This document shows positions 7,804-23,181 of a stretch of DNA of 64,000 nucleotides, piece after piece. Origin of the DNA: an uncultured Mariniphaga sp. (GTDB lineage: Bacteria > Bacteroidota > Bacteroidia > Bacteroidales > Prolixibacteraceae); NCBI GenBank assembly GCA_964575025.1, contig CAZNPV010000008.1, forward strand, positions 11,727 through 75,726, read 5' to 3'. The notes under the pieces are model-generated. The model searched no databases, was not told where the DNA came from, and saw only the letters and a list, made by a program, of their open reading frames with translations. A program made the position numbers and the translations under genes. Position 1 is the first letter of the stretch; every line of letters starts with the position of its first letter.

Positions 7804-7836
7804 ACAGGTGTTATTCCAATAGCACCTGTTTTTTTA
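7804..7836. terminator. Bidirectional intrinsic terminator between convergent genes
   Basis: ACAGGTG (7804-7810) and CACCTGT (7823-7829) form the stem, followed by a T7 run. The element lies between the stop at 7780 (+) and the stop at 7837 (-). Confidence 0.6.
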
Positions 7837-8517
7837 TTAATTCAACACTCCGTCATGCAGATAACAGGTTTCATCCATACGGTCTGCCAGATCCTGTGAA
7901 TGAGTTACTACCACCATAGCCACTTTTTCTTCTTCGCTTAATGAAACCAACAGATCGCCAAGATTCTTCGCGTTTTTTTCATCCAGGGCACCTGTTGGTT
8001 CGTCGGCAAGCAACAGTTGGGGTTTATTAATCAGCGCTCTGACCACTGCTGTACGCTGGCATTCCCCTCCGGATAATTCTGCCGGGCGTTGATACCGTTG
8101 ATCCCAGATACCCACCCTCTTAAGCAGGTACTCAGCCCACGATTCATCCATAACCTGTACTTTCTTTTTAAAAGGAAGTACAGGCAACAACACATTTTCC
8201 CAGAGCGTAAGCTGTGGCAGAAGATAATGCATCTGAAAAATAAATCCCAGTTCCCTATTTCTGAATTCTGCCATTTCAACCTGTGACAACCGGGAGAGGT
8301 CTTTTTCCTTAAAGATGATTCTTCCCGAATCTGCACGGTCGAGGGCTCCTGCAACATTAAGCAGGGTTGTTTTTCCGGACCCGCTGGGCCCCAGAACCGC
8401 CATTTTTTTCCCCTCCTTCACTTCCAGCGACAGTTCTTTTAGTACAGGCCGGAAACCGGGGCTGTTGGGATCTCCATATCCCTTTGATACATTGTCCAGC
8501 AATAATAAACTAGCCAT
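7837..8517 (-). CDS. ABC transporter ATP-binding protein (MacB/LolD type)
   Basis: Walker A GPSGSGKTT, signature LSGGECQR and Walker B LLLADEPTGALD are all present. Confidence 0.9.
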   Translation of the reverse strand: MASLLLLDNVSKGYGDPNSPGFRPVLKELSLEVKEGKKMAVLGPSGSGKTTLLNVAGALDRADSGRIIFKEKDLSRLSQVEMAEFRNRELGFIFQMHYLLPQLTLWENVLLPVLPFKKKVQVMDESWAEYLLKRVGIWDQRYQRPAELSGGECQRTAVVRALINKPQLLLADEPTGALDEKNAKNLGDLLVSLSEEEKVAMVVVTHSQDLADRMDETCYLHDGVLN

Positions 8518-8531
8518 CTATGATTTATATA

Positions 8532-9830
8532 TTATTGTTTTTCGCTTCCATGCAGTGATTCGTACAGCTCAATCATTTTCAGGGTTTGTATGTGGATATC
8601 AAAATGTTTTCTGACCCCACTGACCGCCTTCTCACTGAGCGATTGAATTCTTTCCGGTTTGGTAAACAAATCCTCCAGGGTCTCTGCAAGTGCTTTGGGG
8701 GTATTCTCTTCATAAATCACTCCGCCTTCCGAAGTTTCCACAATTTCCGGGAAAGCCCCCAATGCAGGCTGTACTACAGGCACCCCTGAAGCCATAGCTT
8801 CCAGAAGGTACATTCCGAAAGCTTCTCCATTCCGTACCGGTACTGAGAGCAAAGAGACCTTTTTAAAAAATTCGTCTCGTCCCTGATCTTCAAACTTCTT
8901 ATGAAAGTCAACCTGACTATCCAGATTGTTCTTTTTTAAACGCTTTTTTATTTCTTTGATATAGCGGGTATCATCCCCTGTAGAACCACCGGTAACCACC
9001 AGTTTTACATCCCCGAACCCGGGTTTCTTTTTTAACTCAATAAATGCATCGGTAAGAATATCCAACCCGTTTTCATGGTTCATTCGTGAGAGATATCCAA
9101 TATTACGTGGCTTTTCTGAAGAATTAATGCAGGTATAATCTGTATGGCTGATGCCAAGGTGTATGATATGCACTTTTTCTGGGGGTAAGTTCATCTTTTT
9201 CTTCATCACATCCGCAAAATAGGTACTGACCGATATAAAGGCATCCACATTTTCAGCTTTTTGGTGCATCAGTTTCCAGATATGTTTTCTGAAACCCGGT
9301 TCCATGGCGTCAACCCATACATCTTCATCCTGGAGCGAACATACCACCGGGACGTTAAGCTTTTTTTTAATCTGACGGGCCAGACCCAGCAACAAAGCAT
9401 TGGATATATGGATGATATCCGGCTGAAAGTGGTCGGCTATCCAGTGAACCATTTCGTCCAGTTCTTCCCGTTGCTTTCCTTCTTCTCCCATCAGCATGGA
9501 TTCAGTCATATCTTCCAGTCCCCTGGCGTTGGTTGATCCAGCCATCGATGAAGCAAACTTCAGAAGAGGCTTTGAATTTAAAACACGCTCCACCCATCTC
9601 GGTGCTTTTCTCAATACAGGAAAACGTTGTTTCAGGTACAGACTCACAGCACCATAAAATACCGGAATGTCGGTAAGGTCATGTTCATCCGCAAAAAGGG
9701 GCAGATACATGGGTATCTTAATTACCTGGTGTCCTTCCTTTCTGAAAGCTTCGAAATATTTGCTGTCACGAAGACAATTCCCGCAATAAAAGGAACCACC
9801 TGATCCGGGTATTATCTGAATGATATTCAT
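8532..9830 (-). CDS. Glycosyltransferase, family 4 (GT-B fold)
   Basis: 432 aa. The C-terminal half carries the GT4-type EAFGMYLLEAMASGVPVV motif. The N-terminus has an unusual GSFYCGNC motif. Confidence 0.75.
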   Translation of the reverse strand: MNIIQIIPGSGGSFYCGNCLRDSKYFEAFRKEGHQVIKIPMYLPLFADEHDLTDIPVFYGAVSLYLKQRFPVLRKAPRWVERVLNSKPLLKFASSMAGSTNARGLEDMTESMLMGEEGKQREELDEMVHWIADHFQPDIIHISNALLLGLARQIKKKLNVPVVCSLQDEDVWVDAMEPGFRKHIWKLMHQKAENVDAFISVSTYFADVMKKKMNLPPEKVHIIHLGISHTDYTCINSSEKPRNIGYLSRMNHENGLDILTDAFIELKKKPGFGDVKLVVTGGSTGDDTRYIKEIKKRLKKNNLDSQVDFHKKFEDQGRDEFFKKVSLLSVPVRNGEAFGMYLLEAMASGVPVVQPALGAFPEIVETSEGGVIYEENTPKALAETLEDLFTKPERIQSLSEKAVSGVRKHFDIHIQTLKMIELYESLHGSEKQ

Positions 9831-9856
9831 GATTTGCTTTCTTTCCCTGTTCGTTC

Positions 9857-10963
9857 TTATTCACCAAAACAGTACACAAAACCATCGAAAGCACCGGTCA
9901 CAATTTTTCCGGAAAATACGGCCGGATTACTCAATACGGAACTTCCCAGTTCATAGGTCCAGACAACTTCCCCGTTTTCCAGGTTTGAAATAATCAGGTC
10001 ACCGCGGGTATTTGCCGTAAGCACTTTATCTCCTGAAATTACTGAGGATGCATCTATTTTTCTTCCGGTATTGTGCTTCCAGCGCAATTCTCCGGAATCC
10101 TTGTCAAAACAGTAAATGTATTTATCGTTGTTGCCGATCACAACCTTATCATCTTTTAATGCCGGCGACGCAATAAACGGAAGAAGCGTTTCTTCATCCA
10201 GCCATGTCCATAACACCTTTTTTGTTTGCAGATCAACTTTTGAAAATTTACCATCGTAATCGCCCAGGTAAACATGATTCCCATCTACGGCCACCGAACT
10301 GGCCACATACGTAGCCACATCAATTTTTGAAATCAGTCTGCCGTCAGAAATATTCACGATATGGAGAAAACCGTCACAGCCACCAAATATTGCTTTGCCA
10401 TCAAAACAGGCTGCGGCACCGTTCACAAAATTATCGGTTTCATATTTCCAGCGGACCTCGCCGGTTTCTGCATCCACACAATGAAGGTAAAAATCGTAGC
10501 TCCCCACCACAATGCTTGTTTGTCCGTCACTGGTCCAATAATTGGGAGAACCACTGATCTGATTTTCACACCTATACTCCCATTTCACCTTTCCCGAATG
10601 AAGATCGATAGCCAGGAGCTGACCATCCAGGTTCCCTATATACACGGTACTCTCCAGGATTAAAGCAGGAGCTTCAATGGAATTTTCGGTTTCATGCTCC
10701 CATATTTTTTTACCCGATGTATCCAGACAGTAAACCATTCCGTTTGTTGATCCAATCACTATTTTCCCGTTTGCGGCAACCGGAGCTGATTTAATCATAT
10801 CTCCGGTATCAAATGTCCAGAGCAGCTTTGGGTCCCGGGGTAATTCAGAGGCTGCCACGCCTGTGAGTTGCTTATTCCCCCGGAATAGTGGCCAGGCGGT
10901 CTGTTCCTGGGGATAAACCATATACCCAAAGAAAATCAATACAATAAGTGTTAAATACTTCAC
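9857..10963 (-). CDS. Secreted PQQ-like/BamB-like beta-propeller repeat protein (paralog 1)
   Basis: 368 aa. Signal peptide, then WPLFRG, then repeated ...G.l.a.D..tGk..W... blades. Confidence 0.8.
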   Translation of the reverse strand: MKYLTLIVLIFFGYMVYPQEQTAWPLFRGNKQLTGVAASELPRDPKLLWTFDTGDMIKSAPVAANGKIVIGSTNGMVYCLDTSGKKIWEHETENSIEAPALILESTVYIGNLDGQLLAIDLHSGKVKWEYRCENQISGSPNYWTSDGQTSIVVGSYDFYLHCVDAETGEVRWKYETDNFVNGAAACFDGKAIFGGCDGFLHIVNISDGRLISKIDVATYVASSVAVDGNHVYLGDYDGKFSKVDLQTKKVLWTWLDEETLLPFIASPALKDDKVVIGNNDKYIYCFDKDSGELRWKHNTGRKIDASSVISGDKVLTANTRGDLIISNLENGEVVWTYELGSSVLSNPAVFSGKIVTGAFDGFVYCFGE

Positions 10964-11005
10964 GATAATTCGTAATTATAGGTTAATCTTTGTATCCAGG
11001 CCTCT

Positions 11006-12568
11006 TCAGCTTGTTTTTTTCATTGACAGAGCTCCCGTCGGACAGCTTTCCGCCACCTTCCTGGCAGTAACCACCAGGCTGTCTCTCAATTCCTCATTAA
11101 AAGGTGTACCTATCTCCACATCAAATCCCCTGCCAATGAAAGTAAATCCGAATTTCTCCCTGTATTTGGCCGTCAGCCGCACACAGATTCCGCATTTAAT
11201 GCATTTCCCCGGTTCATACACAACAAGGTCGTGGTTGAAAAGTTTAGAGATTTTTCGTCTTTCTCCGGTTGAAAATCTGCGCTGGCTGGCTTTGTATTCT
11301 TCAGCAAGGTTCCGAAGTTTACACGAATGTATCTCCCGGCAATCACAATGAAGGCATCGTTTGGCTTCTTTCCGGGATATTTCCGGTTCAAATCCCCGGT
11401 TTTCTGTTTCCGGAGGGGTCCATCGTTTACCGGGAATTGATTCTTTCAGGTATTCAGAAAATTCTTCCGGGGTCAGCTTTCCGAACCTGGAATTAAACAG
11501 ACGGGGCTCTCCTTTCACTTCTTCCCTGTTTATATACTGATCCACTGAAAAAGCCACCTCTTTGCCCTGTCCTGCCGAGCGCACTGCCAAACGCGACGGG
11601 CGCAGTACATTGCCAATTGCAAACACTCCTTCTTCGGAAGTCTCATAGGTGTTTTTATCTGCTTCAATTCCTTTGGCTGTTAACCGGAAGCCCCATTTTT
11701 TCTGGGAATCGGAAATATTTCCGGAGGCTATAATTACCGCATGGTTTTCTTTTCTCAGTTCCCGGAACATTTCTGCATCCACCTCTTTGCCAGTTTCCAA
11801 TGCAACCCCGGTGTCCGCGATCTGTTGTATTTCCCTGTCGAGGATTTCTTTCGGAAGTTTTTCATTATCGATTTTGTACCGCAGCATTCCTCCCGCCTGT
11901 TCTTCTTTTTCATAAACGGTACATGCATACCCCCTCAAGCGGAGATAGAAGGAAGCTGCCAGACCTGCCGGTCCTGAGCCTATAATGGCCACTTTTTTCG
12001 TATTGGAAGGGGGAACTTCAAGCGATTGAAAAACCTTTTCCGCGGCTATATCACCAACAAATCTTTTCAGGAGACATATTGATACCGCTTCATCCACCGA
12101 TTTCCGATGGCAGGCTCCTTCACAGGGTGCCGGACATATACGTCCCAAAACGGAGGGAAGGGCAATGTCCCGGAGAACCACCCGCAGGGATTCTTCAAAT
12201 TTACCTTCCAGAATCAGGCGGTTCATTTCCGGAATATTCATGTGTGCCGGGCAGGCAATCTGACAGGGTGCTTCGCAATCGCCGACATGCTCACTGAGCA
12301 GCAATTCCAGAGCTATTCTCCTCCCTTCCAGGACCTCTTCATCTTCGGTAACAATCTCCATGCCCTCCTGTACCATTCTCGAACAGGAAGGAATAAGCTT
12401 TCCGGTAGCAACATTTTTCACCAGGCAAACCATACAGGACGTAAAATGTTCCAGTTCTTCATGCCAGCACAACGAAGGAATCCGTTCTCCTGCCAGTTCA
12501 GCTGCTTTCATTACAGAAGTTCCCTCCGGAACCTGTATTTCTCTGTTGTTTATTTTAATGTTGATCAT
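11006..12568 (-). CDS. FeS/FAD oxidoreductase: N-terminal 2Fe-2S ferredoxin domain, GltD-like FAD domain lacking the NADPH-binding Rossmann domain, C-terminal 4Fe-4S region
   Basis: 520 aa. NuoG/HydA-like N-terminus, GltD-type Cys pattern (CPAPCEGAC), GXGXXG (IIGSGPAG), and C-terminal CIKCGICV...CPTGA. The start abuts the stop of the upstream gene (TAA-ATG at 12568/12569). Confidence 0.7.
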   Translation of the reverse strand: MINIKINNREIQVPEGTSVMKAAELAGERIPSLCWHEELEHFTSCMVCLVKNVATGKLIPSCSRMVQEGMEIVTEDEEVLEGRRIALELLLSEHVGDCEAPCQIACPAHMNIPEMNRLILEGKFEESLRVVLRDIALPSVLGRICPAPCEGACHRKSVDEAVSICLLKRFVGDIAAEKVFQSLEVPPSNTKKVAIIGSGPAGLAASFYLRLRGYACTVYEKEEQAGGMLRYKIDNEKLPKEILDREIQQIADTGVALETGKEVDAEMFRELRKENHAVIIASGNISDSQKKWGFRLTAKGIEADKNTYETSEEGVFAIGNVLRPSRLAVRSAGQGKEVAFSVDQYINREEVKGEPRLFNSRFGKLTPEEFSEYLKESIPGKRWTPPETENRGFEPEISRKEAKRCLHCDCREIHSCKLRNLAEEYKASQRRFSTGERRKISKLFNHDLVVYEPGKCIKCGICVRLTAKYREKFGFTFIGRGFDVEIGTPFNEELRDSLVVTARKVAESCPTGALSMKKTS

Positions 12569-14911
12569 TTATTTTACATCAATTGCATCTTCCGGGCAAA
12601 CCTGCCGGCATGCATCACATTTGATACACAATTCGGTATCGATCTCATGTTTTTCATGGGGCTTGAAAGCAATGGCATCGGTTGGGCATTTCTGAGCACA
12701 CAAGGTACATCCGATGCAGTTATCATTTACTGAATAGGTAATTAATCCGGTGCATTTTCCGGTTGGGCACACGCCATTGATATGGGCTTCATACTCCTCC
12801 CTGAAATACGTTAAGGTTGTTAACACCGGATTGGGAGCAGATCCTCCCAGGGCACACAGACTTCCCTTTTTTGTCCACCGGGCCAGTTCCTCCAATTTTT
12901 CCAGGTCACCTTCCTTCGCTTTCCCGGTACACAGATTATCCATAATATCCAGCATTTTTCTGGTTCCCACCCTGCAGAAGGTACATTTTCCACAGGATTC
13001 ATTTTGTGTAAATGAAAGAAAAAACCGGGCTATATCGACCATACAATCGGTATCATCCATCACGACCAATCCTCCGGAGCCCATCATGGCTCCAAGCCGG
13101 GTTAGTGATTCATAATCGATGGGTGTATCTCCCAACGATGCCGGAATACATCCTCCGGAGGGTCCGCCAATCTGGACCGCTTTGAACTTTCTGCCATTGG
13201 CTATTCCTCCTCCGATCTCTTCGACTACCTGATTAATCGTGGTGCCCATAGGTACTTCAATGAGGCCTCCCCGGGCCACTTTCCCTGCGAGGGCAAAAAC
13301 CTTGGTCCCCTTGCTTCGCTCTGTACCTATACAGTTAAACCGTTCCGGTCCGTTACGAATTATATAGGAAATCTGTGCCAGCGTTTCGGTATTGTTAACC
13401 AGTGTGGAATGCCCCCACAAGCCTTTATCAGACGGATACGGAGGCCGGATATGCGGAAAACCGCGGTTTCCCTGGATCGATTCAATCAGGGCTGATTCCT
13501 CGCCACAAACGAAAGCCCCGGCTCCCTCATAAATGGAAATATCAAAATCAAAACCCGACCCCATAATATCTTTCCCCAGGTATCCATGTTCACGGCACAT
13601 TCTCAGGGCTTCACGGATACGATGAACGGCCAGGGGATATTCTGCCCTGATATAAAAATATCCATCTCCGGCTCCTGTAGCATATGCAGCGATAATAGCT
13701 CCTTCAATAACCCGGTAAGGATAAGACTCCAGAAGCATCCTGTCCATAAATGCGCCGGGATCCCCCTCATCCCCGTTACAAATCAGGTACTTTTGATCAT
13801 CCTTCTTTTGGGCTACAAGCTCCCATTTCATTCCCGTAGGAAAACCGGCTCCACCCCGTCCCCGGATACCACTTTCCTTAACAATCCTGATAATTTCCTC
13901 CGATCCCATCTTAATGGCCATTTCCAGGCCTCTGAAACCAGCTTTCGATATGTATTCTTCGATATCCAGGGGATTTATCACTCCCCTGAACTCTGTGGCT
14001 ATAGAGATCTGTTTCCCTAAAAATGAGGCAACCTGTTTTTCCCGTATATTCAGTTCGTATCGTTTAATTCCATCCCATTTGCTGTCGGATTGAATGTTTT
14101 CTATGGAGCTTAAAAACCGGTTCTTAATTCGCGTCAGAAAACCAGAAGCTTTAAAGTGGTTCGTTATAATTTCGCCGACATCCTTTGGGTTAACCCTGGA
14201 ATACAGAATTGTTTCCTTGCTATCATAAGGGACTATTTCCACCAGGGGCACCTGGTGGCACATCCCCACACATCCTACGTGTTTGAGTTTTACGTTCAGT
14301 TTGTTTCTGTTCACTGCCTCTTCCACAGCCTCACGAATCTCTCCGCTTCCGCTGGCTACACAACAGGATCCCAACCCGATGCGTATTTCTCCCTCTATCA
14401 CTGTTCCATCAGCACGACGGGCTTTCTGATCCTCTTTTTTATCTTTCCGGGACTCAAAATCCCGTATGACCTGAACCACCTGTCCGGACTCTACATGTCC
14501 ATAAGTTATCCTGTCAACCTGTACTACAGGAGCCAGCGTACAACACCCCAGGCAACTTACTTTTTCCAGGGTATACTCCCTTTTTTCGTCTGTATCCTCT
14601 CCTTCTTTCAACTTCAGCTCCCTGTGAAAAGCATCATACACCTGCTCTGCTCCTTTCACATGGCAAGCGGTTCCTACACATACCTTTATCCGGTGATGCC
14701 CGGTTGGAGATATCCGGAATTGAGAATAAAAACTGGCCACTCCGATAATATCGGCAGCAGTAATCCTGGTCGTCTCACTAACCCTTCTTAAGGCTTCCTG
14801 AGGAAGGTAGTTATATTCCGCCTGAATTGCCTGCAATATAGGAATCAGGTTCTTCTTTTCAGAACCCGTTTTTTGAATGATTGTATCTACAACAGTAAAA
14901 TCCTTCTCCAT
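12569..14911 (-). CDS. NuoE-NuoF fusion flavoprotein (HydB/HndC-like NADH-binding FMN/FeS diaphorase subunit)
   Basis: 780 aa. NuoE-like 2Fe-2S Cys pattern, a second 2Fe-2S-like domain, NuoF motifs GRGGAGFPTG and CNGDEGDPGAFMDR, ESCGKCTFCR, and a C-terminal 2x[4Fe-4S] CxxCxxCxxxCP. Confidence 0.85.
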   Translation of the reverse strand: MEKDFTVVDTIIQKTGSEKKNLIPILQAIQAEYNYLPQEALRRVSETTRITAADIIGVASFYSQFRISPTGHHRIKVCVGTACHVKGAEQVYDAFHRELKLKEGEDTDEKREYTLEKVSCLGCCTLAPVVQVDRITYGHVESGQVVQVIRDFESRKDKKEDQKARRADGTVIEGEIRIGLGSCCVASGSGEIREAVEEAVNRNKLNVKLKHVGCVGMCHQVPLVEIVPYDSKETILYSRVNPKDVGEIITNHFKASGFLTRIKNRFLSSIENIQSDSKWDGIKRYELNIREKQVASFLGKQISIATEFRGVINPLDIEEYISKAGFRGLEMAIKMGSEEIIRIVKESGIRGRGGAGFPTGMKWELVAQKKDDQKYLICNGDEGDPGAFMDRMLLESYPYRVIEGAIIAAYATGAGDGYFYIRAEYPLAVHRIREALRMCREHGYLGKDIMGSGFDFDISIYEGAGAFVCGEESALIESIQGNRGFPHIRPPYPSDKGLWGHSTLVNNTETLAQISYIIRNGPERFNCIGTERSKGTKVFALAGKVARGGLIEVPMGTTINQVVEEIGGGIANGRKFKAVQIGGPSGGCIPASLGDTPIDYESLTRLGAMMGSGGLVVMDDTDCMVDIARFFLSFTQNESCGKCTFCRVGTRKMLDIMDNLCTGKAKEGDLEKLEELARWTKKGSLCALGGSAPNPVLTTLTYFREEYEAHINGVCPTGKCTGLITYSVNDNCIGCTLCAQKCPTDAIAFKPHEKHEIDTELCIKCDACRQVCPEDAIDVK

Positions 14912-14956
14912 ATCTTTCCCAACAAAAATCCCTGATTGGTCTTTACTCCTTATCTC

Positions 14957-16858
14957 TTATTTCCCAAAACAATACAGATTCCCGATGCCCCGGATAAAAA
15001 TTCTGCCATCCGAAAATGCAGGGGATGCATACCCTTCTTCCCCCAGTTCCGGTTGACCCAATACCTTTGCTTCCCTGCTTACTTCAAGAATATGCATCAC
15101 TCCCTGGGTATCGAGGGCATAGATCTTATTATCTGCTACCACCGGGGAAGCGTAAAATACTTTTCCGAAGTCTTCCTCCCAAAGCAATTCTCCTGTTTTT
15201 GCATCATAACACACCAACATCCCATAGGTTGTGGCCACTATCAGCAGCCCGTTTGCACATACCGGGCTGGCCACTTCGGGAAGGTAAAAATCATCTTCCC
15301 AGACAATGGCTGCGTTCACCGGATCAATCGCTGCAAGGCGGGCATATTCATTGGCAGCAAAAACCAACCCTTCACACACGGTTACTGAAGGGCCAACCTC
15401 GCCCATCAGGCACTCCACAGCCCATTGTTCTTCACCTGTTTCAGTATCATAACCTGCCACAATCGGAGCGCCGGTAAGTATCACCTGTTTTTTCCCGTTG
15501 ATATCAGCCAGTACGGGGCTTGCCCAGGAGATACCGGCATCCCGGGGGGTTTCCCAAACCGTTTCGCCGTTTGCTGTATTCAGGGCCATCACTTTTGCCC
15601 CGCTGTTGGTGTCGAACTGAACAAACACTTTCCCGTTCCAGGTAACCAGGGATGAGGAGTGTCCATAATGGTTGTCAGGCATTCCAAGGTTCCTCGCCCA
15701 GATCCGGTTTCCGTTCACATCAAAACAGATGATATCACCGGTCGCGAAAATAGCAAAAACGTATTTCCCGTCTGTTGTAACGGTCGGAGCAGCCAACCCT
15801 GTATCATCCGATACCTTTGGTATTTGGGCTGGTGATCCGGGAATATTATCTGCCACTCCGGACCATAAAAACTCCCCGGTATTCTTATCCAAACAGTATA
15901 CTACCCGGGCCTCCTCATCACCCCCTGAAAGGAAAACTTTATCTTCCCAGACAACGGGCGAATTGAATCCTGGTTTCGGTATCGCGGTCTTCCAGATAAG
16001 ATTTGTTCCGTCAGCCCCGTTCCATTCTACAGGTACGTCAGAAAGGGTACTGACTCCATTGCTCCAGGGACCCCGGAAACTGTTGTAATTACCATTCACC
16101 TTTGCAGGAGTTAAGATGCCTGCTACACCCTCTGAATCAGCTTGTTCGGATTCATCCAGCCCTTCATCCGTTCCTTCCTGCAGAGCTTCTTCCTGGCTGG
16201 AACCTGGGTCCGGCGTACTAACTGTTTCTTCTCCGGTTACCCTTTCCGGTTCTGTTTCCCCGGTATCCGGACCGGAAACCTCTTCTGCCACCTCTCGTGA
16301 GGCACTTATATCCACGACTTCAATCCCTTCCTCAGCAGGTTGTTCATCCGGTGGTATGTTCGTCTCACCTATGGAATATTTATCCAGTTGGTTTACCGTA
16401 GCCAAGGAAACAAACAATGCTGAAACCAACACGGCAACCCCGGTAAAAAGAATCCATTTCCGGGAAAGAATCCGGCTCGCTATTTCATTTTCCTGTGCCG
16501 TATCCGGTTCCTCAATTTTTGCTTTCAGAGAATAATAATACCGTAAAGCAACCGCACAAACAACTGCACCGAAAAGCAAAAGGTATGCTCCGGTTTTAAC
16601 CTGCCACCTGCTGTTGAAGTAGGCTTTTCGCGCAAGAAGATCAAAACTCCGTATTTCCTCCTTTAATTCTTCGTTATTGGGTTCATCCTGCAGCCTTTCC
16701 ACCAATGCTTCAATGGTTTTGCTCTCCAACGTTTCATTCTGTGCAAACTGATAATAGTTCAGCAGAAGAAGCAACGCCACCAATGCACAAAAGATTCCGG
16801 AGATGAGAATCACCTTTTTTGAAAGCTGAAGTTTATCGTTCATTGATATTTCTTTCAC
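14957..16858 (-). CDS. Membrane-anchored PQQ-like beta-propeller protein with acidic linker (paralog 2)
   Basis: 633 aa. Three N-terminal hydrophobic helices, then a roughly 90-aa Glu/Asp/Thr/Pro-rich linker, then SFRGPW and PQQ-like blades. Confidence 0.75.
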   Translation of the reverse strand: MKEISMNDKLQLSKKVILISGIFCALVALLLLLNYYQFAQNETLESKTIEALVERLQDEPNNEELKEEIRSFDLLARKAYFNSRWQVKTGAYLLLFGAVVCAVALRYYYSLKAKIEEPDTAQENEIASRILSRKWILFTGVAVLVSALFVSLATVNQLDKYSIGETNIPPDEQPAEEGIEVVDISASREVAEEVSGPDTGETEPERVTGEETVSTPDPGSSQEEALQEGTDEGLDESEQADSEGVAGILTPAKVNGNYNSFRGPWSNGVSTLSDVPVEWNGADGTNLIWKTAIPKPGFNSPVVWEDKVFLSGGDEEARVVYCLDKNTGEFLWSGVADNIPGSPAQIPKVSDDTGLAAPTVTTDGKYVFAIFATGDIICFDVNGNRIWARNLGMPDNHYGHSSSLVTWNGKVFVQFDTNSGAKVMALNTANGETVWETPRDAGISWASPVLADINGKKQVILTGAPIVAGYDTETGEEQWAVECLMGEVGPSVTVCEGLVFAANEYARLAAIDPVNAAIVWEDDFYLPEVASPVCANGLLIVATTYGMLVCYDAKTGELLWEEDFGKVFYASPVVADNKIYALDTQGVMHILEVSREAKVLGQPELGEEGYASPAFSDGRIFIRGIGNLYCFGK

Positions 16859-16975
16859 TTGTATAGAACTAATTTAAAACATTATGCAATTAAAAATAAG
16901 TAGCAGTGTCTTAACAGACTTCATCGGGCCCGTGGTACCTCGTTTCATCCATAGATTGTTATGATCTTTCATCCT

Positions 16976-18241
16976 TTACTTTTTATCGACAGGGCAATAA
17001 TCCATACAGCGCCCGCAACTGAAGCATTCACCCCGGTTAGGGGTATAATCTTCCTTGCGACGATAAACCACCTGGTTCAACAGGGTTAATCCAATCACCA
17101 GACCGATAAATCCTCCCAGAATCCAGCTTCCCACATAAAATTCCTCTCTCTTTAATCTGGCTTCTTCCACCAGGGTATCCATTGTTTTTCCGGATTCCAG
17201 AAAGGTCTGAATATCTATATTTTCAGGATCATCTTTTAACTCAGGATGTTCAATCAGCAATTCAGCCAGGTATACATCGGGATGAGCCCTTGACAGCCAT
17301 ACATGGGCTTCCGAACCGATAAATCCACCGGCAGCTATCCATAACGGGAGCAAAGCAGCATACAGCATAAAATTTCTGACTCCCGCACGGGATGAGGTTG
17401 TTGCTTTTTCATCGGTAGGAACATCAATCGCATCAAAAGGACACGAGGTAGTACATAACTTGCAACGGATGCATCGGGAGGGAGTTATGGATAAATGCCA
17501 TTTAGAAAATCTTGAGAACAAGTTTAACAGTACGGCATAAGGACAGATAAACCGGCAATAGGGACGTGCAACAAACATTCCCATCAATAAGAAACTTACT
17601 CCCAGGACAATCATATGAAACGGGGCATCCATTCTGAAGATACCGATAAACGGATCATAACGGCAAATAATAAATTCGGTTCCGGTAGCTGCATAAAGAA
17701 CAGCAAGCCCCAGATAGATAGCAGGAAAGATCCCCAGGATCTTCCGCAGCCAGCGTGGCAGCGAAATGGGTTTAAGGATAACGAGGTCCTGAATGGCCCC
17801 CAACGGACAGGCACCTGCACAAAATGTTCTTCCAAAGAATAAAGTGAAAATCAGAGGCATCAGGAAAAACAACAAAGCAGTGACGGAAACAGCATAGGTT
17901 GAATCAAAAAATGAAAGGGTGACATTCTGCACCGCCCCTACCGAACAGATACAGCCGTTACGGTAAAAACCAAAATAGAGCATGGTAAAAACCGACAACC
18001 ATAAAATTCCCTGCCGGGAACGTTTCTTCAGGGCCATATAAGAAACCATGGAAAGAACGACCAGCAAGACAAGTACATCTAAATACTCCATCGCCTGAGC
18101 GCGTGGCTCCGGTGTTACCGGATCGGGTTGGACATAGCCGCTTTCGAATTCCGGTTTGGGGAATCGTTGCTGCTGCCCCGACACAGATACACAAAACAGC
18201 AACAGGATAAAAGCCACGAACAGGTGTATTTTTGGTATCAA
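16976..18241 (-). CDS. NapH/NosR/MauN-like integral-membrane polyferredoxin
   Basis: 421 aa. Two CX3CP motifs at helix ends (CAGACPLG, CRFICPYA), 4Fe-4S motifs CIRCKLCTTSCP and CFSCGRCMDYCP, and multiple TM helices. Confidence 0.75.
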   Translation of the reverse strand: MIPKIHLFVAFILLLFCVSVSGQQQRFPKPEFESGYVQPDPVTPEPRAQAMEYLDVLVLLVVLSMVSYMALKKRSRQGILWLSVFTMLYFGFYRNGCICSVGAVQNVTLSFFDSTYAVSVTALLFFLMPLIFTLFFGRTFCAGACPLGAIQDLVILKPISLPRWLRKILGIFPAIYLGLAVLYAATGTEFIICRYDPFIGIFRMDAPFHMIVLGVSFLLMGMFVARPYCRFICPYAVLLNLFSRFSKWHLSITPSRCIRCKLCTTSCPFDAIDVPTDEKATTSSRAGVRNFMLYAALLPLWIAAGGFIGSEAHVWLSRAHPDVYLAELLIEHPELKDDPENIDIQTFLESGKTMDTLVEEARLKREEFYVGSWILGGFIGLVIGLTLLNQVVYRRKEDYTPNRGECFSCGRCMDYCPVDKK

Positions 18242-18274
18242 AGTTTTAAGTTTTATGCTTGTTTCATTAAATGT

Positions 18275-18841
18275 CTATGCTATATTGGTCCAGCTTCCCT
18301 TCACCTTATAAGCATTCTCAGCTTTGACGCGTTTAATCGCATCAGAAGGACAAACCCGTGCAATGGAACACTCATTGCAATTGAGGCATATATGGTGCAT
18401 GATCTGCAGGTGGAGAGATCCGTTTCCGAAAGCCGTACATCCTTCCACACATTTGCCGCATCCGATACATAAATCTTCGTGAATAATATACTCAAAATAG
18501 GGTTCCTCAATAAACTTTCGTTCGATCGCAGCAGCCGGGCAAAGCTGATTTTCGGCTGCTGTTGAAAGTTCATTGGCATCGGGCTTAAAGTATCCTCCGC
18601 ACAGATCACAATACCCGCATAAATCAAAAGCATGAATGCATTTCACTGCCGAAGGATTCAGCATACACTCGGTGGCACAACGCCCGCACTGTGTACACTC
18701 AAAAGGATCGATCTGCCATACCCATTCGTCGGTTGTTGAGCGACCAAGGGCCAACCCTGCCAGTCCACCGACAGCCATTCCCATGACCATGCGCGTCCCG
18801 CTCTGAATAAATTCTCTCCTTGTTTTAGCTTTTTCTTCCAT
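18275..18841 (-). CDS. Tat-exported 4Fe-4S polyferredoxin (NapG/MauM-like)
   Basis: Start placed at MEEKAKTRREFIQSG... (twin-arginine signal). There are several CxxCxxC...CP clusters. The longer ORF running to 18919 is probably an N-terminal over-extension. Confidence 0.75.
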   Translation of the reverse strand: MEEKAKTRREFIQSGTRMVMGMAVGGLAGLALGRSTTDEWVWQIDPFECTQCGRCATECMLNPSAVKCIHAFDLCGYCDLCGGYFKPDANELSTAAENQLCPAAAIERKFIEEPYFEYIIHEDLCIGCGKCVEGCTAFGNGSLHLQIMHHICLNCNECSIARVCPSDAIKRVKAENAYKVKGSWTNIA

Positions 18842-19031
18842 CTTCTCTCGCTCTTTTTGCCTTTTGAAGGGTACACGTTGAAAAGCGCTCACATCCGGAG
18901 CAGAGTGAATCCCCTTCACATTCTGAAACCCCGGTAATGCGCCTGTTTAGGGTTAAGTAACCGGTAAAAACACCAATACTGCATAGTATTAGCCACCTTC
19001 CACTGTTTCTTATAAATTCCTTTCGTTTCAT
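18825..19031 (-). CDS. Small (68 aa) anchored protein with a CX5CX2CX5C motif
   Basis: N-terminus MKRKEFIRNSGRW plus a hydrophobic helix resembles a degenerate Tat signal or anchor. Tail reads CEGDSLCSGCERFSTC. The start shares an ATGA overlap with the upstream gene's stop, and 17 nt overlap the downstream start. Coding status is unproven. Confidence 0.45.
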   Translation of the reverse strand: MKRKEFIRNSGRWLILCSIGVFTGYLTLNRRITGVSECEGDSLCSGCERFSTCTLQKAKRAREDGRKS

Positions 19032-20017
19032 TCTATGGGTTTAAACAAACGGATCATCTTTCGGTCAAAATCCAGGGCATAAATATTTCCTTTCTCATCA
19101 GCCGTTACCTCAGGAGCCTGCCCGTCTTCCTTAAACTTATCAGGAGGAGCCACAACACATTTAAATTCTCCGGATGGTTTATATATTTTTATACGTACCA
19201 GTCCTTTTTCGCTGGTAACAAAGGAACCATCGGGAAGGAAGGTAAAATGCGCGGGATTACAGCATCCACCGAAAGCTTCAATACCCACAATTTTTTTTTG
19301 CTGCCAGTACTCCCGTAATTTACCCTCAGGGGTATAATGCTCAAGGGCATGCAAACCGGTATTCGCCACCCATAAATCCCCGTATTTATTAAAGGCCAGA
19401 TCAAAATACCTGCTCGGAATGATAAATCCGTACAGGGCTTCATCTTCATGTTTTCCGTCAAACTCGCTGATCTTTTTTCCATCCAATGTAAACCGGCATA
19501 TTCTTCTTCTTCCGGCATCTGCAACAAAAAGTTCATCCTCCCATATTCCCAGCGATGTGATTACCGATTTCTCACCCAGCGTATCCCATTTGCTGATCCG
19601 TTCTCCGTTTTTGTTGTAGGAAGCAATATAATTTATAAATGCGATAAATATCCGGGTTGAATCCAGGGTTATGCATGTGGGGGTATCACCCAAGGATTGT
19701 TCAAAAACTAAAGAACCATTCTCTGTGATTACCTGTAAATACTGGTCTCCCAACACATACAAATTCCCTTTTTCATAGGCGATTCCATAGGGTTCAGAAA
19801 AGTTCAGCCGGATGTTTTTGGTTTCTTTGTATTGAATCAGTGAAGGATCCACCTGTTTATACTCATCGATATTGTAGTCAAAGGGATTTACAGGCAGCTT
19901 TTCCGGTCGGATTGAGATAAAATCAACCACCACCACAACCACTATGATTACAGCCAGGGTTATTAGAAAAAGTATGATTCCTTTATTCTTCATAATTATA
20001 ACCGCATATCGATACAA
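19028..20017 (-). CDS. N-terminally anchored NHL-repeat-like six-bladed beta-propeller protein
   Basis: 329 aa. TM helix (ILFLITLAVIIVVVVVV), then NHL-like repeats (YGIAYEKGNLYVLGD, LFVADAGRRRICRF, GDLWVANTG, GNIYALD). Contains a vicinal Cys motif GGCCNP. Alternative start at 19993. Confidence 0.65.
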   Translation of the reverse strand: MYRYAVIIMKNKGIILFLITLAVIIVVVVVVDFISIRPEKLPVNPFDYNIDEYKQVDPSLIQYKETKNIRLNFSEPYGIAYEKGNLYVLGDQYLQVITENGSLVFEQSLGDTPTCITLDSTRIFIAFINYIASYNKNGERISKWDTLGEKSVITSLGIWEDELFVADAGRRRICRFTLDGKKISEFDGKHEDEALYGFIIPSRYFDLAFNKYGDLWVANTGLHALEHYTPEGKLREYWQQKKIVGIEAFGGCCNPAHFTFLPDGSFVTSEKGLVRIKIYKPSGEFKCVVAPPDKFKEDGQAPEVTADEKGNIYALDFDRKMIRLFKPIE

Positions 20018-21423
20018 ACCATTGTTTTTGAATCACGCAACACCAGGTAACCGTCAGCGAGAGCAAACGGAGCCCAGGCATCGTGAGCATCTTCAATCAC
20101 TTTAACCTGTTCGAGTTGAATATATCGCTCTGTACTGGGACGAAGAATTGTAAGTACTGCCTGGTCATCCAGGATAAAGAACTTATTATCCGCAAAAAAA
20201 TAAGGACCTAAGCCAAAACGTTTTTCTTTACCGCTTGACCAGACAATTTTTTTTGTATCGTCAGGATGGACGCATACAAACTGGTTACGTAGCGCTCCTC
20301 CATCCTTGGGAAGAATACCAAACAGGTGATCCTGGTAATACACCGGGGTTTGCTGTTCACAGGCCAGGCCTTCCCTCGGGGCATATTCTGCCAAAACGGT
20401 TGTACGGAATACTCCGTTCTGTTCAGAAAGCTGGACAACCATGGAACCGGCGCCGTATCCTGCTGTCAGAAATATTTTACCGTTGGGCAGGCACACCGGA
20501 GACGGCGCAATCACCGAATGGTTCCATGCTGGTTCTTCCCAAAGAACGGTACCGGCATCCGGCCCCTCTGCGGCTATTCCTACAAGAGCTCCTATGGCGC
20601 TGTAAACATACATCTTTCGTCCCCCAAAGGTAAATGGAACAATCGATGAGTGCGACATTTTCCAGCCTTTCGGATTGGGAGTCTCCCAAAGAGTCTCCCC
20701 TGTTTGGCAATTTACAGCAATCATCAGTGCAGTTCCTCCGGTAGCAAGAATGGCGTTCCCCTCATCAATGAGGGGACACTGCCCTGTATACCACATGGGG
20801 ATCTCCGCATTGTATTTTTTTTCTATATCTATCCCCCAAAGAAAATTGCCTGTTTCCCTTTCCACGCACATGGTATGGCACCGGGGCCCGATGGTCACGA
20901 TATGCGCCTCGGTGACTGCCGGTATGGTTCGGGACATCCCATGATTGCGCTTCACGGCTACACGATACCACCGTCGCCATATCTCTTCGCCACTAACCAG
21001 GGAATGACACCGCAGAACATCTGCACGTAACTGTTCATCATAATCAAGCAGATAGACCAATCCTTTATAGATGGCTGCACCGGAATGACCTTCGCCCAGT
21101 TCAAGAGACCATACAATTTCCGGGCCTTCGGGACCAAATTTTTCCTTTAATCGAACCGGGGATTTTGAAATATTATCCAGATTCTCTCCGCGAAACCGGG
21201 GCCAGGTTTCATTCAGTTCTTGATATTCGTCTGTAAACCGTTCGAAACTCTCCCCTATGGCAATATTCTCCTCAACAGCAACTCCTTCCGTCCGGTTATC
21301 AGCTCCCGGAAGGCTTTTTTCAAAATTTTTCGTGGGATTTGCCCCAAGCCACCAGGCAAATACAACCACTCCCACTGCGGCTATGCCTATAACGACCCAA
21401 TTCTGAATTACCCTCACACCCAT
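19996..21423 (-). CDS. Anchored PQQ-like beta-propeller protein (paralog 3)
   Basis: 475 aa. N-terminal TM helix, then WPRFRG and PQQ-like blades. Preceded by an atypical AAGGAGG box at 21428-21434. Confidence 0.75.
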   Translation of the reverse strand: MGVRVIQNWVVIGIAAVGVVVFAWWLGANPTKNFEKSLPGADNRTEGVAVEENIAIGESFERFTDEYQELNETWPRFRGENLDNISKSPVRLKEKFGPEGPEIVWSLELGEGHSGAAIYKGLVYLLDYDEQLRADVLRCHSLVSGEEIWRRWYRVAVKRNHGMSRTIPAVTEAHIVTIGPRCHTMCVERETGNFLWGIDIEKKYNAEIPMWYTGQCPLIDEGNAILATGGTALMIAVNCQTGETLWETPNPKGWKMSHSSIVPFTFGGRKMYVYSAIGALVGIAAEGPDAGTVLWEEPAWNHSVIAPSPVCLPNGKIFLTAGYGAGSMVVQLSEQNGVFRTTVLAEYAPREGLACEQQTPVYYQDHLFGILPKDGGALRNQFVCVHPDDTKKIVWSSGKEKRFGLGPYFFADNKFFILDDQAVLTILRPSTERYIQLEQVKVIEDAHDAWAPFALADGYLVLRDSKTMVCIDMRL

Positions 21424-21644
21424 GAATCCTCCTTATCCTTAAAACCACCCCTGAGATCGGGGACCAAAGTCCTCTTCAGTATTTACCGGGTACAATATAC
21501 TTTTTTAAATTAAAACTCCGGACCTTCTATGCCTGACAGAAATGAACCCGGCTTTTTTACAGGATATCGTATTCCTTTACAATTCAGATGATAAAAATAA
21601 GGATTTTTATCTTTGCTTTGTTAACACGATCTGAACGGTTCAAT

Positions 21645-22892
21645 TTATAATGCTTTTACATTATACACCATTAATACTTCGCCGTGTCTCAAATACAGTT
21701 TACCCCCGGCTATATACGGATGGGCCCAGTGCGGGCCGCTTCCTTTGGTGATCCTGAACTGGCTAACCACCTCAAACCCATCGGGATCGGGTTTTATGAG
21801 TCCTACATTTCCGCGTTCGTTGTATGCATATAACATTTCGTCAGCCATCACAACCGATCCTTTTGAATCCCAGTCTGCAACAAATTTTATATCTCCGGTA
21901 TCCCAGTTCATGCAGACCCAACGGCCCTGGCTGTTGCTGTACCAGTTTGAACCATAGATGTGCCCGTTATAAAGCACCAACCCACCGTGGTGGTTATCCA
22001 GGGTATGGTCAACATATTTTTCTGAAACCGACAATCCCAGAGAATCCATCTTCAACATCACTGCATCGTAATTATATCCCATGGAAATAAAAATCTCATC
22101 ATCCTTAAAAAGGGGTGTATTGATCCATATTAATCCGTTATCCTGAAACCGCCATTTTTCGGGATCAAAATAGGTATAATGCCAGGCAATGTCCCCTGTT
22201 TCAGGGAAAAGAGCTATAATATCGATACCGGTAACTGCCAGGATATACCTGTAATTATTATAGCGATAAATGGTTGGAGAAACATACCCCCTGGCTCCTC
22301 CCAGCGATTTGCTCTGCCAAACCGGTTCACCTGAAAATTTATTAAAGGCAACAACACTTGTTTTATCCCCTCCGGGGGTACAGATCACCATGTCATCCAC
22401 AATCAATGGCGTTTCGGAATTTCCCCACATGTGGTATTCACATTCATAGTCTTTATCCACCTCCACAGCCCAGATTTCCTTCCCTGTTTCCTTGTTAAAG
22501 CATACGAGTCTTCCGGTACCACTTTGCACATACAAACGGGTTCCCTCAAGGGTCGGTGAACTTCTTGTATCCGGGTAGGACTGCGTCCATGAACGCCCGT
22601 AAGGAACCTGCCATTCAATCTCCCCATCAGAACTTAATTTTGTAAGATAATCGAGGGTGTCGATCATACCGGTAACATAAATGGCATCACCGGTAGCTAT
22701 CGGCGAGGACCATCCCCTGCCGAGATCGTTTGCTTCAAACAAAAGTTCAGGGCCTTCCTCAGGCCACTCCTTTAACAGCCCCGTATCGGGGAAATGGCCG
22801 TCCCGGTCAGGCCCCCGCCACTGAGTAACCTGGGCTGAAAGAGAAATTGAAATGAAAAAGAAAAAACATAAAATAACATTTGCTCGTCTCAT
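21645..22892 (-). CDS. Secreted PQQ-like beta-propeller protein (paralog 4)
   Basis: 415 aa. Signal peptide, then QWRGPDRDG and PQQ-like blades. Confidence 0.75.
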   Translation of the reverse strand: MRRANVILCFFFFISISLSAQVTQWRGPDRDGHFPDTGLLKEWPEEGPELLFEANDLGRGWSSPIATGDAIYVTGMIDTLDYLTKLSSDGEIEWQVPYGRSWTQSYPDTRSSPTLEGTRLYVQSGTGRLVCFNKETGKEIWAVEVDKDYECEYHMWGNSETPLIVDDMVICTPGGDKTSVVAFNKFSGEPVWQSKSLGGARGYVSPTIYRYNNYRYILAVTGIDIIALFPETGDIAWHYTYFDPEKWRFQDNGLIWINTPLFKDDEIFISMGYNYDAVMLKMDSLGLSVSEKYVDHTLDNHHGGLVLYNGHIYGSNWYSNSQGRWVCMNWDTGDIKFVADWDSKGSVVMADEMLYAYNERGNVGLIKPDPDGFEVVSQFRITKGSGPHWAHPYIAGGKLYLRHGEVLMVYNVKAL

Positions 22893-23181
22893 CTGTATAT
22901 AATTTTTAAATACCCAATTTTCCCGGTAAAAATAATAGTCTTATTTTATTAACAGGGATGATGAATCCAATTATTTTCCAATTTATTATTTTCCAGCCAT
23001 TTAAATACAGCCTTGTATTGGCACATAGAATGAGTGACAAAAAAAATCAGAGATTTTATTCTCTATTCATTTCAATTGTTATATTTAAGTGGTAAAGGAC
23101 CAATAAACGAACAGAAGTAAAATTTACACACAGCGTAATGTTTTAGGGCGCATACCTTAAAGAATAAACAATTTTATTAAG

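Follow-up and report, generated by a model that had tools for sequence, protein, structure and literature searches.

Gene order and gene fusions associate a Bfu-type flavoprotein core, a NapH-like membrane protein and periplasmic beta-propellers in Prolixibacteraceae: a candidate envelope-spanning redox machine

What holds a row of iron-sulfur (FeS) proteins, flavoproteins and beta-propellers together on one strand of a Bacteroidota genome, and in which direction would electrons run through it? The question is raised by a locus of an uncultured Mariniphaga sp. (Bacteroidales; Prolixibacteraceae) that lies in a 64,000-nucleotide stretch of DNA (GenBank assembly GCA_964575025.1, contig CAZNPV010000008.1, positions 11,727 to 75,726 of the forward strand). 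The whole stretch is called the window here, and positions within it are counted from its first letter. A sequence-only reading had grouped twelve minus-strand genes at 7837-22892 and had seen in them a haem-free conduit carrying electrons from cytoplasmic NADH to the periplasm, beside a rex gene. Our analysis supports the association of these genes, through synteny and fusions, but neither a simple NADH donor nor a link to Rex. With a thirteenth gene added, we lean slightly towards regarding the set as one envelope-spanning redox machine, in which the membrane protein g6 would be the hub, a Bfu-type core would form the cytoplasmic end, and electrons would move outward. The thirteen genes are as follows, with lengths in amino acids (aa) and transmembrane segments abbreviated as TM.

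g1, 21645-22892, minus strand: PQQ_2 beta-propeller with a Sec signal, 415 aa (PF13360, E 3.8e-20; signal-like N-terminus)
g2, 19996-21423, minus strand: PQQ_2 8-bladed propeller with an N-terminal TM anchor, 475 aa
g3, 19028-19993, minus strand: NHL six-bladed beta-propeller with a TM anchor, 321 aa from the ATG at 19993
g4, 18825-19031, minus strand: 68-aa protein with one TM helix and four conserved Cys
g5, 18275-18841, minus strand: polyferredoxin with a twin-arginine signal, 188 aa from the ATG at 18841 (Fer4 matches in Pfam)
g6, 16976-18241, minus strand: 7-TM Fer4_5 protein of the NapH/NosR/CcoG superfamily (Pfam and hydropathy scan)
g7, 14957-16858, minus strand: three N-terminal TM segments, an acidic linker and a PQQ_2 propeller, 633 aa (PQQ_2, E 1e-31)
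g8, 12569-14911, minus strand: NuoE-NuoF (BfuC-BfuB) fusion (Pfam and PDB matches)
g9, 11006-12568, minus strand: 2Fe-2S and GltD-like regions with extra 4Fe-4S motifs, 520 aa
g10, 9857-10963, minus strand: secreted BamB-like propeller, 368 aa (PQQ_2)
g11, 8532-9830, minus strand: cytoplasmic family 4 glycosyltransferase (GT4), 432 aa (Glycos_transf_1 and Glyco_transf_4)
g12, 7837-8517, minus strand: LolD/MacB-type ATP-binding cassette (ABC) ATPase, 226 aa (ABC_tran, E 8.5e-33)
FtsX gene, 3359-6619, minus strand: duplicated FtsX/MacB-type permease, 1086 aa (FtsX twice and MacB_PCD in Pfam)

Tight spacing is by itself a normal operon trait; what goes beyond chance in this set is the gene order shared across phyla, together with the fusions. 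A scan of one genome per GTDB species with motifs from the g6 alignment confirmed 529 relatives; from these, the 80 best loci were retrieved with 10-kb flanks. The order and strand of g1 to g12 and FtsX are kept in all 80 loci as far as the contigs reach (tblastn), with g6 at 63-78% identity. Approximate identities are 72% for g5, 70% for g8, 69% for g6, 66% for g2, 61% for g9, 53% for g7, 50% for g3 and 37% for g4. The genes that flank or interrupt the set in the window are not kept, as rex and a TIM-barrel gene accompany it in 0 of the 80 loci and a thymidylate-synthase-like gene in only one. This turnover around an intact set provides an internal control against simple phylogenetic inertia. 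Co-localisation of the propeller and FeS genes in relatives, on which the sequence-only reading had made its proposal depend, was found both in the 80 Prolixibacteraceae/Bacteroidales species genomes and in distant high-GC lineages. The gene set is also present in cultured Draconibacterium, Maribellus, Mariniphaga and Tangfeifania strains, and its parts are publicly annotated as "4Fe-4S binding protein", "NosR/NirI family regulator", "PQQ-binding-like beta-propeller repeat protein" or "BamB".

Two observations concern individual loci of this sample. One locus, L002 (JAADGO010000034.1), is labelled Chlorobiota and holds the whole cluster at 57-77% protein identity; we regard it as a Bacteroidota contig that was probably mis-binned, since its g6 shares 73% identity with that of the window. 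Between the g1 paralogues of 8 loci, Draconibacterium included, stand genes for a LytS-like kinase and a LytTR regulator (L022 3426-5199; L026 1597-3398). This pair, absent from the window, is a candidate for a dedicated regulator upstream of the cluster in those loci.

Beyond the Bacteroidales, a HMMER search with g6 covered 1.84 billion cluster representatives (clusters at 50% identity) and matched 406 clusters at E<=1e-30, many of them over the full length at 36-53% identity; the top 150 were analysed. With g6 identities of 36-45%, the core is found again in the high-GC lineages L081, L082/83, L084/P0263, L087, L089-L091 and L093. The gene content of these loci, and of one further locus from a Bacteroidota metagenome-assembled genome (MAG), is given below.

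L082/83, GC 61%: g5, a g6-g7 fusion, g8, g9, ABC ATPase, FtsX and a g10-like gene
P0263 locus/L084, GC 62% (L084): g2, a short g3, g5, g6-g7, g8, g9 and GT4, with an additional divergent propeller-FtsX-ABC-propeller operon
L090, Planctomycetota: g3 and g2, divergent from g5, g6-g7, g8 and g9
L093, GC 71%: a single tight operon of g10, ABC, FtsX, g2, g3, g5 and g6-g7
L087 and L081, short contigs: g5, g6 (fused or not), g7 and g8
L089, Phycisphaerae: g2, g3, g5, a g6-NuoE fusion, NuoF and a full-length g9
L091, GC 65%: g5, a g6-NuoE fusion, NuoF and a truncated g9
L092, Bacteroidota MAG: the full set, with a 638-aa polypeptide (P0281) composed of a g4-like segment, g5 and g6

Throughout these loci g5 and g6 are universal, g7, g2, g3 and the Bfu pair occur in most, and ABC/FtsX/g10 and GT4 are frequent accessories. 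Three independent types of fusion were found, all of them with g6: the g4-g5-g6 polypeptide, the g6-g7 fusion of about 1000 aa with g7 at the C-terminus of g6 (10 of the 150 representatives), and the g6-NuoE fusion in P0291-P0299, where NuoE follows TM5. Taken together, the cross-phylum synteny and the fusions support well a functional and physical association of the parts.

Two of the distant loci contain additional genes. In L089, a small gene of the PDDEXK_3 nuclease family (11769-12185, plus strand) is inserted between the g6-NuoE and NuoF genes. In L093, the opposite strand (15424-19265, minus) encodes an FNR-type reductase (FAD_binding_6, NAD_binding_1 and 2Fe-2S), an amine-oxidase-like flavoprotein and a ThiI/QueC-like protein, which could be an alternative cytoplasmic donor module.

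If the parts belong together, what kind of enzyme stands at the cytoplasmic end? The best PDB match of g8 is NfnB of an archaeal Nfn-Bfu enzyme (9n5u_B; E 2.7e-206, about 60% identity), followed by Caldicellulosiruptor NfnB (9bov_B), StnB of the Sporomusa Stn enzyme (8oh5_B) and bifurcating HydB subunits. Its alignment to NfnB keeps the HydB-type N-terminal 2Fe-2S site, the GRGGAGFPTG flavin mononucleotide (FMN) motif and the CGKCTFCR 4Fe-4S site of NuoF, and both 2x[4Fe-4S] ferredoxin motifs are present at the C-terminus in the residue alignment. Residues 9-152 form a NuoE-like 2Fe-2S domain (PF01257, E 3e-50), which NuoE and HoxE models also match. In terms of the Bfu family, g8 contains every domain that characterises BfuB (the FMN/NADH site, the 4Fe-4S site, the N-terminal 2Fe-2S and the C-terminal 2x[4Fe-4S]) and, fused to its N-terminus, the thioredoxin-fold 2Fe-2S domain of BfuC. 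The features of BfuA are found in g9, through Fer2_4 and Fer4_Nqo3 matches and alignment to NfnA/StnA/HydA.

The sequence-only reading had called g9 a GltD-like FAD (flavin adenine dinucleotide)/FeS protein. Domain matches uphold the likeness, but g9 is not a complete GltD, as its NAD(P)H-binding domain is missing. It aligns to NfnA (9bov_A, E 5.8e-93) in two blocks, residues 1-284 with 4-287 and residues 277-515 with 428-672, and NfnA residues 288-427 (about 131-140 residues) have no counterpart. We take the missing segment to be the NAD(P)H-binding Rossmann domain. Aligned with the 663-aa Phycisphaerae homologue of L089, which retains the domain, including its second glycine-rich motif GxGxxA, g9 shows a clean gap of 131 columns; the gap is shared by two relatives of high GC content, one from L082 and one from the Planctomycetota locus L090. 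Furthermore, g9 stops at the equivalent of residue 672 of the 1178 of 9bov_A, and the Fdh-like C-terminal domain of NfnA/StnA is missing. What g9 retains is a 2Fe-2S cluster, two GltD-type 4Fe-4S clusters, a FAD-type Rossmann fold and two further 4Fe-4S motifs, with 19 cluster-ligand Cys conserved at 97-100% in the orthologue alignment.

By sequence criteria, g8 and g9 are a Bfu-type (NfnABC/Stn-like) bifurcating/confurcating core, with a BfuA that lacks the NADP(H) site. They therefore cannot be an NADP-linked transhydrogenase, and the simple NADH dehydrogenase envisaged earlier gives way to this core. Because g8 and g9 match the bifurcating core, ferredoxin is probably a co-substrate. Members of the Bfu family share a BfuBC core, into which a variable BfuA or extra subunits feed, and the characterised enzymes reduce NAD and ferredoxin reversibly while BfuA supplies electrons from a third substrate (PMC11829005). 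Passages of the 2022 classification of the family count seventeen BfuB clades with no assigned function (PMC9304861).

Compared with NfnABC and StnABC (PDB 9bov, 9n5u, 8oh5), g8 has all the cluster and FMN motifs of NfnB, and g9 matches NfnA/StnA in the 2Fe-2S, the GltD-type 4Fe-4S, the FAD fold and the 4Fe-4S motifs that follow. The differences are the absence from g9 of the NAD(P)H Rossmann and Fdh-like domains, the fusion of BfuC to BfuB in g8, the position of both genes inside a membrane/periplasmic set, and the joining of NuoE to a NapH-like protein in some lineages. The predicted Nuo-Bfu and Mbh-Bfu complexes, as they appear in parts of PMC9304861, and the Bfu 'plug' on a WOR polyferredoxin nanowire, in parts of PMC12318220, likewise add electron-transfer subunits for a third substrate to a BfuBC core. 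Their partners are complex-I or Mbh-type proton pumps and a cytoplasmic tungsten enzyme, whereas the partner here is a NapH-like protein oriented toward the periplasm.

The route across the membrane would be provided by g6. All of its 15 Cys are conserved at 93-100% among the top 150 cluster representatives, which are 36-53% identical to it. Two CX3CP and two CxxCxxCxxxCP motifs are predicted to face the cytoplasm. On the periplasmic side, the predicted residues are the conserved Cys97 and Cys99 (TM2-TM3 loop) and Cys193 (TM4-TM5 loop), together with a conserved N-terminal QRFPKPEF motif that follows the signal peptide. TM segments were taken from a hydropathy scan, and the sidedness is our positive-inside reading of them. 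Two of the fusions fit this sidedness: NuoE is attached after TM5, and NuoE must be cytoplasmic, and g5 is attached at the N-terminus of g6, and g5 is Tat-exported (twin-arginine translocation).

As for its family, g6 scores far below the cut-offs of the NapH models (37.8 of 213 bits for TIGR02163 and 31.5 of 234 for PRK09477). The traits of NosR are also lacking, since g6 has no FMN_bind match and reaches 26.8 against 1000 for NF046105, and nosZ was not detected at any locus. We class it as a NapH superfamily member outside the NapH family proper. A profile search of the PDB with g6 returned ferredoxin motifs only, and no solved NapH/NosR/CcoG membrane domain.

Immediately upstream of g6, wherever the locus sequence extends that far, stands g5; in L092 the two are fused. 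Across 87 sequences, the RRxF motif and 17 Cys of g5 reach at least 95% conservation. The g5 product is predicted to be a Tat-exported periplasmic ferredoxin of NapG-like design, with enough Cys for four [4Fe-4S] clusters. NapG models return no match to g5, napA and napB are absent from the window and from the related loci, and a PDB profile search with g5 gave ferredoxin-motif matches only. The small g4 protein has a Tat-like R-K/R-x-F motif, one TM helix and a Cx5CxxCx5C motif whose four Cys are conserved in 34 sequences, and a small g4-like open reading frame (ORF) precedes g5 in the distant locus L085.

The resemblance to NapGH, NosGH and MauMN lies in a Tat multi-cluster ferredoxin that adjoins a Fer4_5 protein with two CX3CP and two ferredoxin-type motifs. 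NosGH and MauMN also accompany a propeller enzyme, namely NosZ and the methylamine dehydrogenase heavy chain. Unlike these systems, however, g6 has 7 TM segments, carries the QRFPKPEF motif and has three additional conserved Cys, which are predicted to lie on the outer side. NapAB, NosZ, MauAB, cytochromes and an FMN-bind domain of the NosR kind are absent from the cluster, whose electron source is apparently the cytoplasmic Bfu module rather than quinol.

At the periplasmic end, the four PQQ-like propellers (PQQ, pyrroloquinoline quinone) g1, g2, g7 and g10 are paralogues, as first proposed, but distant ones (21-24% identity; BLASTP E 1e-4 to 1e-22). Their relation to two known groups was considered and rejected. 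For true BamB, TIGR03300 gives 143 bits for g10, 85 for g7, 47 for g1 and 25 for g2 against a cut-off of 285, and the lipobox Cys is absent; grouping with true BamB had been named beforehand as a reason to abandon the proposal, and all four fall far below this equivalog cut-off. For PQQ dehydrogenases, TIGR03075 gives 34-67 bits against 480, which are fold-level matches only, the individual PQQ-binding residues not having been examined. The set shares with BamB, PQQ dehydrogenases and tetrathionate hydrolase the fold of g2 and the PQQ_2 matches of g1, g2, g7 and g10, and differs from them in the inner-membrane anchors of g2 and g7 and in the lack of a lipobox in any propeller.

Among the propellers, g2 is the most constrained periplasmic component and is the candidate catalytic subunit. 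Over 72 orthologues, distant phyla included, 114 of its positions are at least 95% conserved. They include Cys139, Cys186, Cys216, Cys384 and Cys470 as well as His161 and His258, and the protein has invariant motifs of its own (NHG..RT.P, WYTGQCP, MSH.S..P, EQQT and RFGLGP). It is present in L084, L089, L090, L092 and L093. An AlphaFold2 model with a mean confidence (predicted local distance difference test, pLDDT) of 87 shows an 8-bladed propeller on a TM helix. Foldseek returned generic BamB, the cofactor-free tetrathionate hydrolase and PQQ-dependent alcohol dehydrogenase for this model, at template-modelling scores of about 0.55, 13-17% identity and E of about 1e-16; generic matches of this sort give no lead to a function.

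The description of g3 as an anchored NHL-like propeller gained firmer ground. From the single sequence the NHL match is weak (E 2.6e-4) and the AlphaFold2 model unusable (pLDDT 41.7), but a profile of 11 orthologues matches the NHL domain of TRIM3 in the PDB at E 4.4e-21 over residues 64-318. Its GCCNP motif contains a vicinal Cys-Cys pair, and C244, C245, N246 and P247 do not vary, not even in the orthologues from Planctomycetota and Phycisphaerae. The same profile weakly matches NHLRC2 and SOQ1 (E 4e-4 to 0.05), proteins in which an NHL domain is joined to a thioredoxin-like domain. In the g6-g7 fusions, the propeller of g7 would lie outside although it is attached to the cytoplasmic C-terminus of g6, because the number of g7 TM segments is odd. 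Only 27 positions of g10 are at least 95% conserved, all of them fold-defining; g10 looks like a scaffold, the most BamB-like of the set. In turn, g1 is a variable accessory with one to four paralogues per relative (tblastn, 80 loci).

The set does not end at g12, and the left boundary at 7837 proved too tight. In at least 20 relatives an FtsX orthologue begins 30-100 nt past g12 on the same strand, so the functional set is taken to be 3359-22892, through the FtsX permease. The best model for g12 is LolD (TIGR02211, 225 bits against a cut-off of 308), and the permease has about 10 TM helices and two periplasmic domains. An FtsX-type permease with a MacB-like periplasmic core together with a LolD/MacB-type ATPase is what defines a type VII ABC system. 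The likeness to MacB, LolCDE and FtsEX rests in this combination; the differences are that the permease here is a duplicated 1086-aa single chain and that its gene is linked to those of propellers and a redox chain. The g12-FtsX pairing recurs in L082/83, L092, L093 and the P0263 locus. In L082/83 and L093 the FtsX orthologues are 27-38% identical and g10 adjoins the ABC-FtsX genes, and in L093 the stop codon of FtsX overlaps the start of g2. The ABC ATPase accordingly belongs with the giant FtsX permease and g10, and co-occurs with the redox genes in other phyla.

In the window, g12 is split from FtsX by a xylose-isomerase-like TIM-barrel gene (6842-7780, plus strand; AP_endonuc_2, E 4e-13), which we regard as a lineage-specific insertion because relatives have no such gene at that position. 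A hairpin at 7802-7831, with a 13-bp stem and a T-run, follows this gene and abuts the 3' end of g12. The GT4 gene g11 is a conserved accessory after g9 or g10 in Bacteroidota loci and is also present in L092 and the P0263 locus. A bacillithiol link through a weakly BshA-like g11 and a PIG-L gene was considered and rejected, as both score below the cut-offs and the PIG-L gene is never near the cluster in relatives. The PIG-L deacetylase gene lies at 25313-26185 (plus strand) and is closest to BshB1 (117 against 182 bits).

How might these parts work together? Two features of the earlier proposal hold. A motif scan of the translations shows that CxxCH is absent from all twelve products of the original cluster, and a terminal reductase or oxidase of a known family was recognised neither in the cluster of the window nor in the distant loci that were examined. 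In the reading that we favour, electrons from NADH and reduced ferredoxin would converge in g8, and the FeS chain of g9 would carry them onward to the cytoplasmic 4Fe-4S clusters of g6. The next centre would be one bound by the CX3CP pair of g6, predicted to lie inside, followed by an outer-side site with Cys97, Cys99 and Cys193. From there g6 would hand the electrons to the four-cluster Tat ferredoxin g5 and then to the anchored propellers g7, g2 and g3, which would reduce a periplasmic or surface substrate. A low-potential confurcating donor makes sense in such a scheme because outward electron flow opposes the membrane potential. The type VII ABC system (g12 and FtsX), g10 and the GT4 would form an attached mechanical or assembly module, whose task might be to handle the substrate or product, or else to put the periplasmic part together.

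The identified carriers are fermentative or facultative anaerobes, mostly polysaccharide degraders, and need sinks for NADH and ferredoxin. In fermentative anaerobes the machine would act as a haem-free sink for electrons, through which NAD+ and oxidised ferredoxin are regenerated. As to the acceptor, a sulfur or disulfide-type compound is our leading guess, held with low confidence. It is prompted by three weak hints: the conserved Cys in g2, g3, g4 and the outer side of g6, the tetrathionate hydrolase fold match of g2, and the faint NHLRC2/SOQ1 matches of g3.

A fully specified version of this scheme can be drawn. In it, a Cys-ligated FeS path without haem, molybdopterin or quinone would lead from Bfu confurcation to the Tat ferredoxin and the propeller reductases g2, g3 and g7, and on to an external acceptor, possibly of the sulfur or disulfide type, with the ABC system handling substrate or product. 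The whole would be a widespread new class of machine, a periplasm-directed counterpart of the confurcating hydrogenase and a fermentative sink in Bacteroidota and Planctomycetota. We put forward this detailed version tentatively; that it is right in all its parts is possible but doubtful.

Several points weigh against the favoured reading. The redox and propeller modules can separate, because in L093 the membrane and periplasmic genes have no Bfu genes within 10 kb and in L091 the Bfu genes, g5 and g6 have no propellers nearby. Transmembrane electron transfer through g6 is a proposal made from its sequence, and the profile search of the PDB offers no NapH-type membrane domain for comparison. 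NapH proteins are usually regarded as quinol dehydrogenases, which makes a quinone step possible. In g9, the 'GD' of the FAD motif is replaced by 'GN' in 50 of 59 orthologues, clouding the role of that domain. In Foldseek the propellers resemble known proteins only in their general fold, and no cofactor site came to light. Finally, electrons could flow either way, because Bfu enzymes are reversible.

This last point leads to the same machine run in reverse, in which the propellers would oxidise a periplasmic donor, g5, g6 and g9 would carry electrons inward, and the Bfu core would bifurcate them to NAD+ and ferredoxin, giving the cell an uptake route for low-potential reductant. The architecture and the fusions are compatible with either direction, and the characterised Bfu enzymes do reduce NAD and ferredoxin from a third substrate, reversibly (PMC11829005). 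The membrane potential, by our own inference, would also favour inward electrons. However, the propellers show no recognisable dehydrogenase cofactor site in the Foldseek comparisons, and the putative FNR-type NAD(P)H:FeS reductase near the L093 operon fits, weakly, a flow from NAD(P)H to the outside. The carriers, moreover, are mostly fermentative polysaccharide degraders, which need sinks rather than reductant. On this balance we consider reverse flow unlikely.

An equally improbable alternative is that the FeS conduit serves maintenance or assembly, keeping an envelope component (a metal centre, disulfides or a glycoconjugate) reduced or assembled, with the propellers as scaffold and the ABC system and GT4 as assembly engine, by analogy with NosR/NosGH and NosDFY for NosZ. 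The conserved accessories speak for it, as the ABC system, the GT4 and the scaffold-like g10 and g1 accompany the set in Bacteroidota, L082/83, L092, L093 and the P0263 locus. So do the fold-only conservation of g10, the invariant vicinal Cys pair of g3 and the weak g3 profile matches to NHLRC2/SOQ1. Yet no client enzyme is conserved within or beside the cluster, a complete bifurcating module for NADH and ferredoxin would be out of proportion to a maintenance flux, and the conservation of g2 is enzyme-like and not scaffold-like.

That the genes are mere neighbours (an Nfn-like transhydrogenase, a NapGH-like quinol module and an envelope ABC/GT/BamB set held together by phylogenetic inertia) seems very improbable to us, for although all 80 closely syntenic loci come from one order-level group and some distant loci hold only subsets, the three fusion types join the supposed modules, the set stays intact while its flanks turn over, it recurs in other phyla with a different gene order, and g9 lacks the NADP site that a transhydrogenase requires.

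The gene calls underlying this argument are largely those of the sequence-only reading. The ORF listing and the translations agree with twelve closely spaced minus-strand genes at 7837-22892, and the Pfam/NCBIfam scans with the domain assignments of all twelve, apart from the GltD-like label. The TAA-ATG abutment at 12568/12569 and the ATGA overlap at 19028-19031 are both real in the sequence, as is the 17-nt overlap at 18825-18841 if the g5 ferredoxin starts at its own ATG. The 22-nt overlap of g2 and g3 claimed at 19996-20017 depends on a doubtful TTG start of g3. From the ATG at 19993, g3 has an ordinary MKNK-plus-TM N-terminus, and the copy in a public collection is likewise 321 aa long; because both fit the shorter g3, the true spacing is probably a 2-nt gap.

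The neighbouring rex gene does not appear to be part of this system. The gene at 23182-23847 (plus strand), divergent from g1, encodes a true Rex, with a score of 268 bits where the cut-off is 130. In the 289-nt spacer between rex and g1 (22893-23181) no operator of the type TTGTGAA-N6-TTCACAA was found with up to 3 mismatches, a Bacteroidota-specific operator not having been tested, and the 4 Rex-box-like sites that the rest of the window contains match the chance expectation. With no operator-like site in the spacer and no rex beside the cluster in any related locus, the proposed Rex link is unsupported. A sigma-70 promoter scan gave 37 hits against 32.9 in shuffled sequence and a search for intrinsic terminators gave 23 against 22.4, although such scans are unsuited to Bacteroidota promoters. 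Promoters may lie in the 221 nt that separate g1 from g2 and in the 117 nt that separate g6 from g7.

Other genes of the window deserve brief mention. The thymidylate-synthase-like gene at 23945-24835 (minus strand) has as its best model the archaeal-type TIGR03283 (98 against 175 bits), and its homologue adjoins the cluster only in L059; the product may be a nucleotide-modifying paralogue rather than ThyA. At 42475-44661 (minus strand) a 728-aa radical SAM protein of the KamA family is encoded, aminomutase-like and with an N-terminal extension of about 200 aa. The adjacent gene at 44754-45989 (minus strand) encodes a 411-aa protein with no Pfam or NCBIfam match.

What, then, would the locus add to present knowledge? 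All of its domains come from known superfamilies. Apparently undescribed is the combination of a Bfu core whose BfuA lacks the NADP site with a NapH-like hub, a Tat ferredoxin, inner-membrane-anchored propellers and a type VII ABC system. A full-text literature search found no description of this gene set, and the passages on types in the 2022 Bfu classification mention no NapH-like, periplasm-directed one (PMC9304861). There is a real chance that the gene set represents a new class of respiratory or electron-sink complex, and direct testing is possible because cultured strains of Draconibacterium, Maribellus, Mariniphaga and Tangfeifania carry it.

If the proposed wiring is true, the Bfu family would gain a periplasm-facing partner, and at least one of its function-less groups would gain a function. 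To our knowledge, the role of the cytoplasmic FeS clusters in NapH-type proteins has never been explained; they would become the entry to a transmembrane FeS wire, which this locus would allow to be tested in a concrete case. The NADH/ferredoxin balance of haem-poor anaerobic polysaccharide degraders, among them the Prolixibacteraceae, Phycisphaerae and other Planctomycetota that abound in sediments, would then be explained by an extracytoplasmic partner, and the machine may be a new haem-free route by which electrons move out of, or into, the cells of anaerobes.

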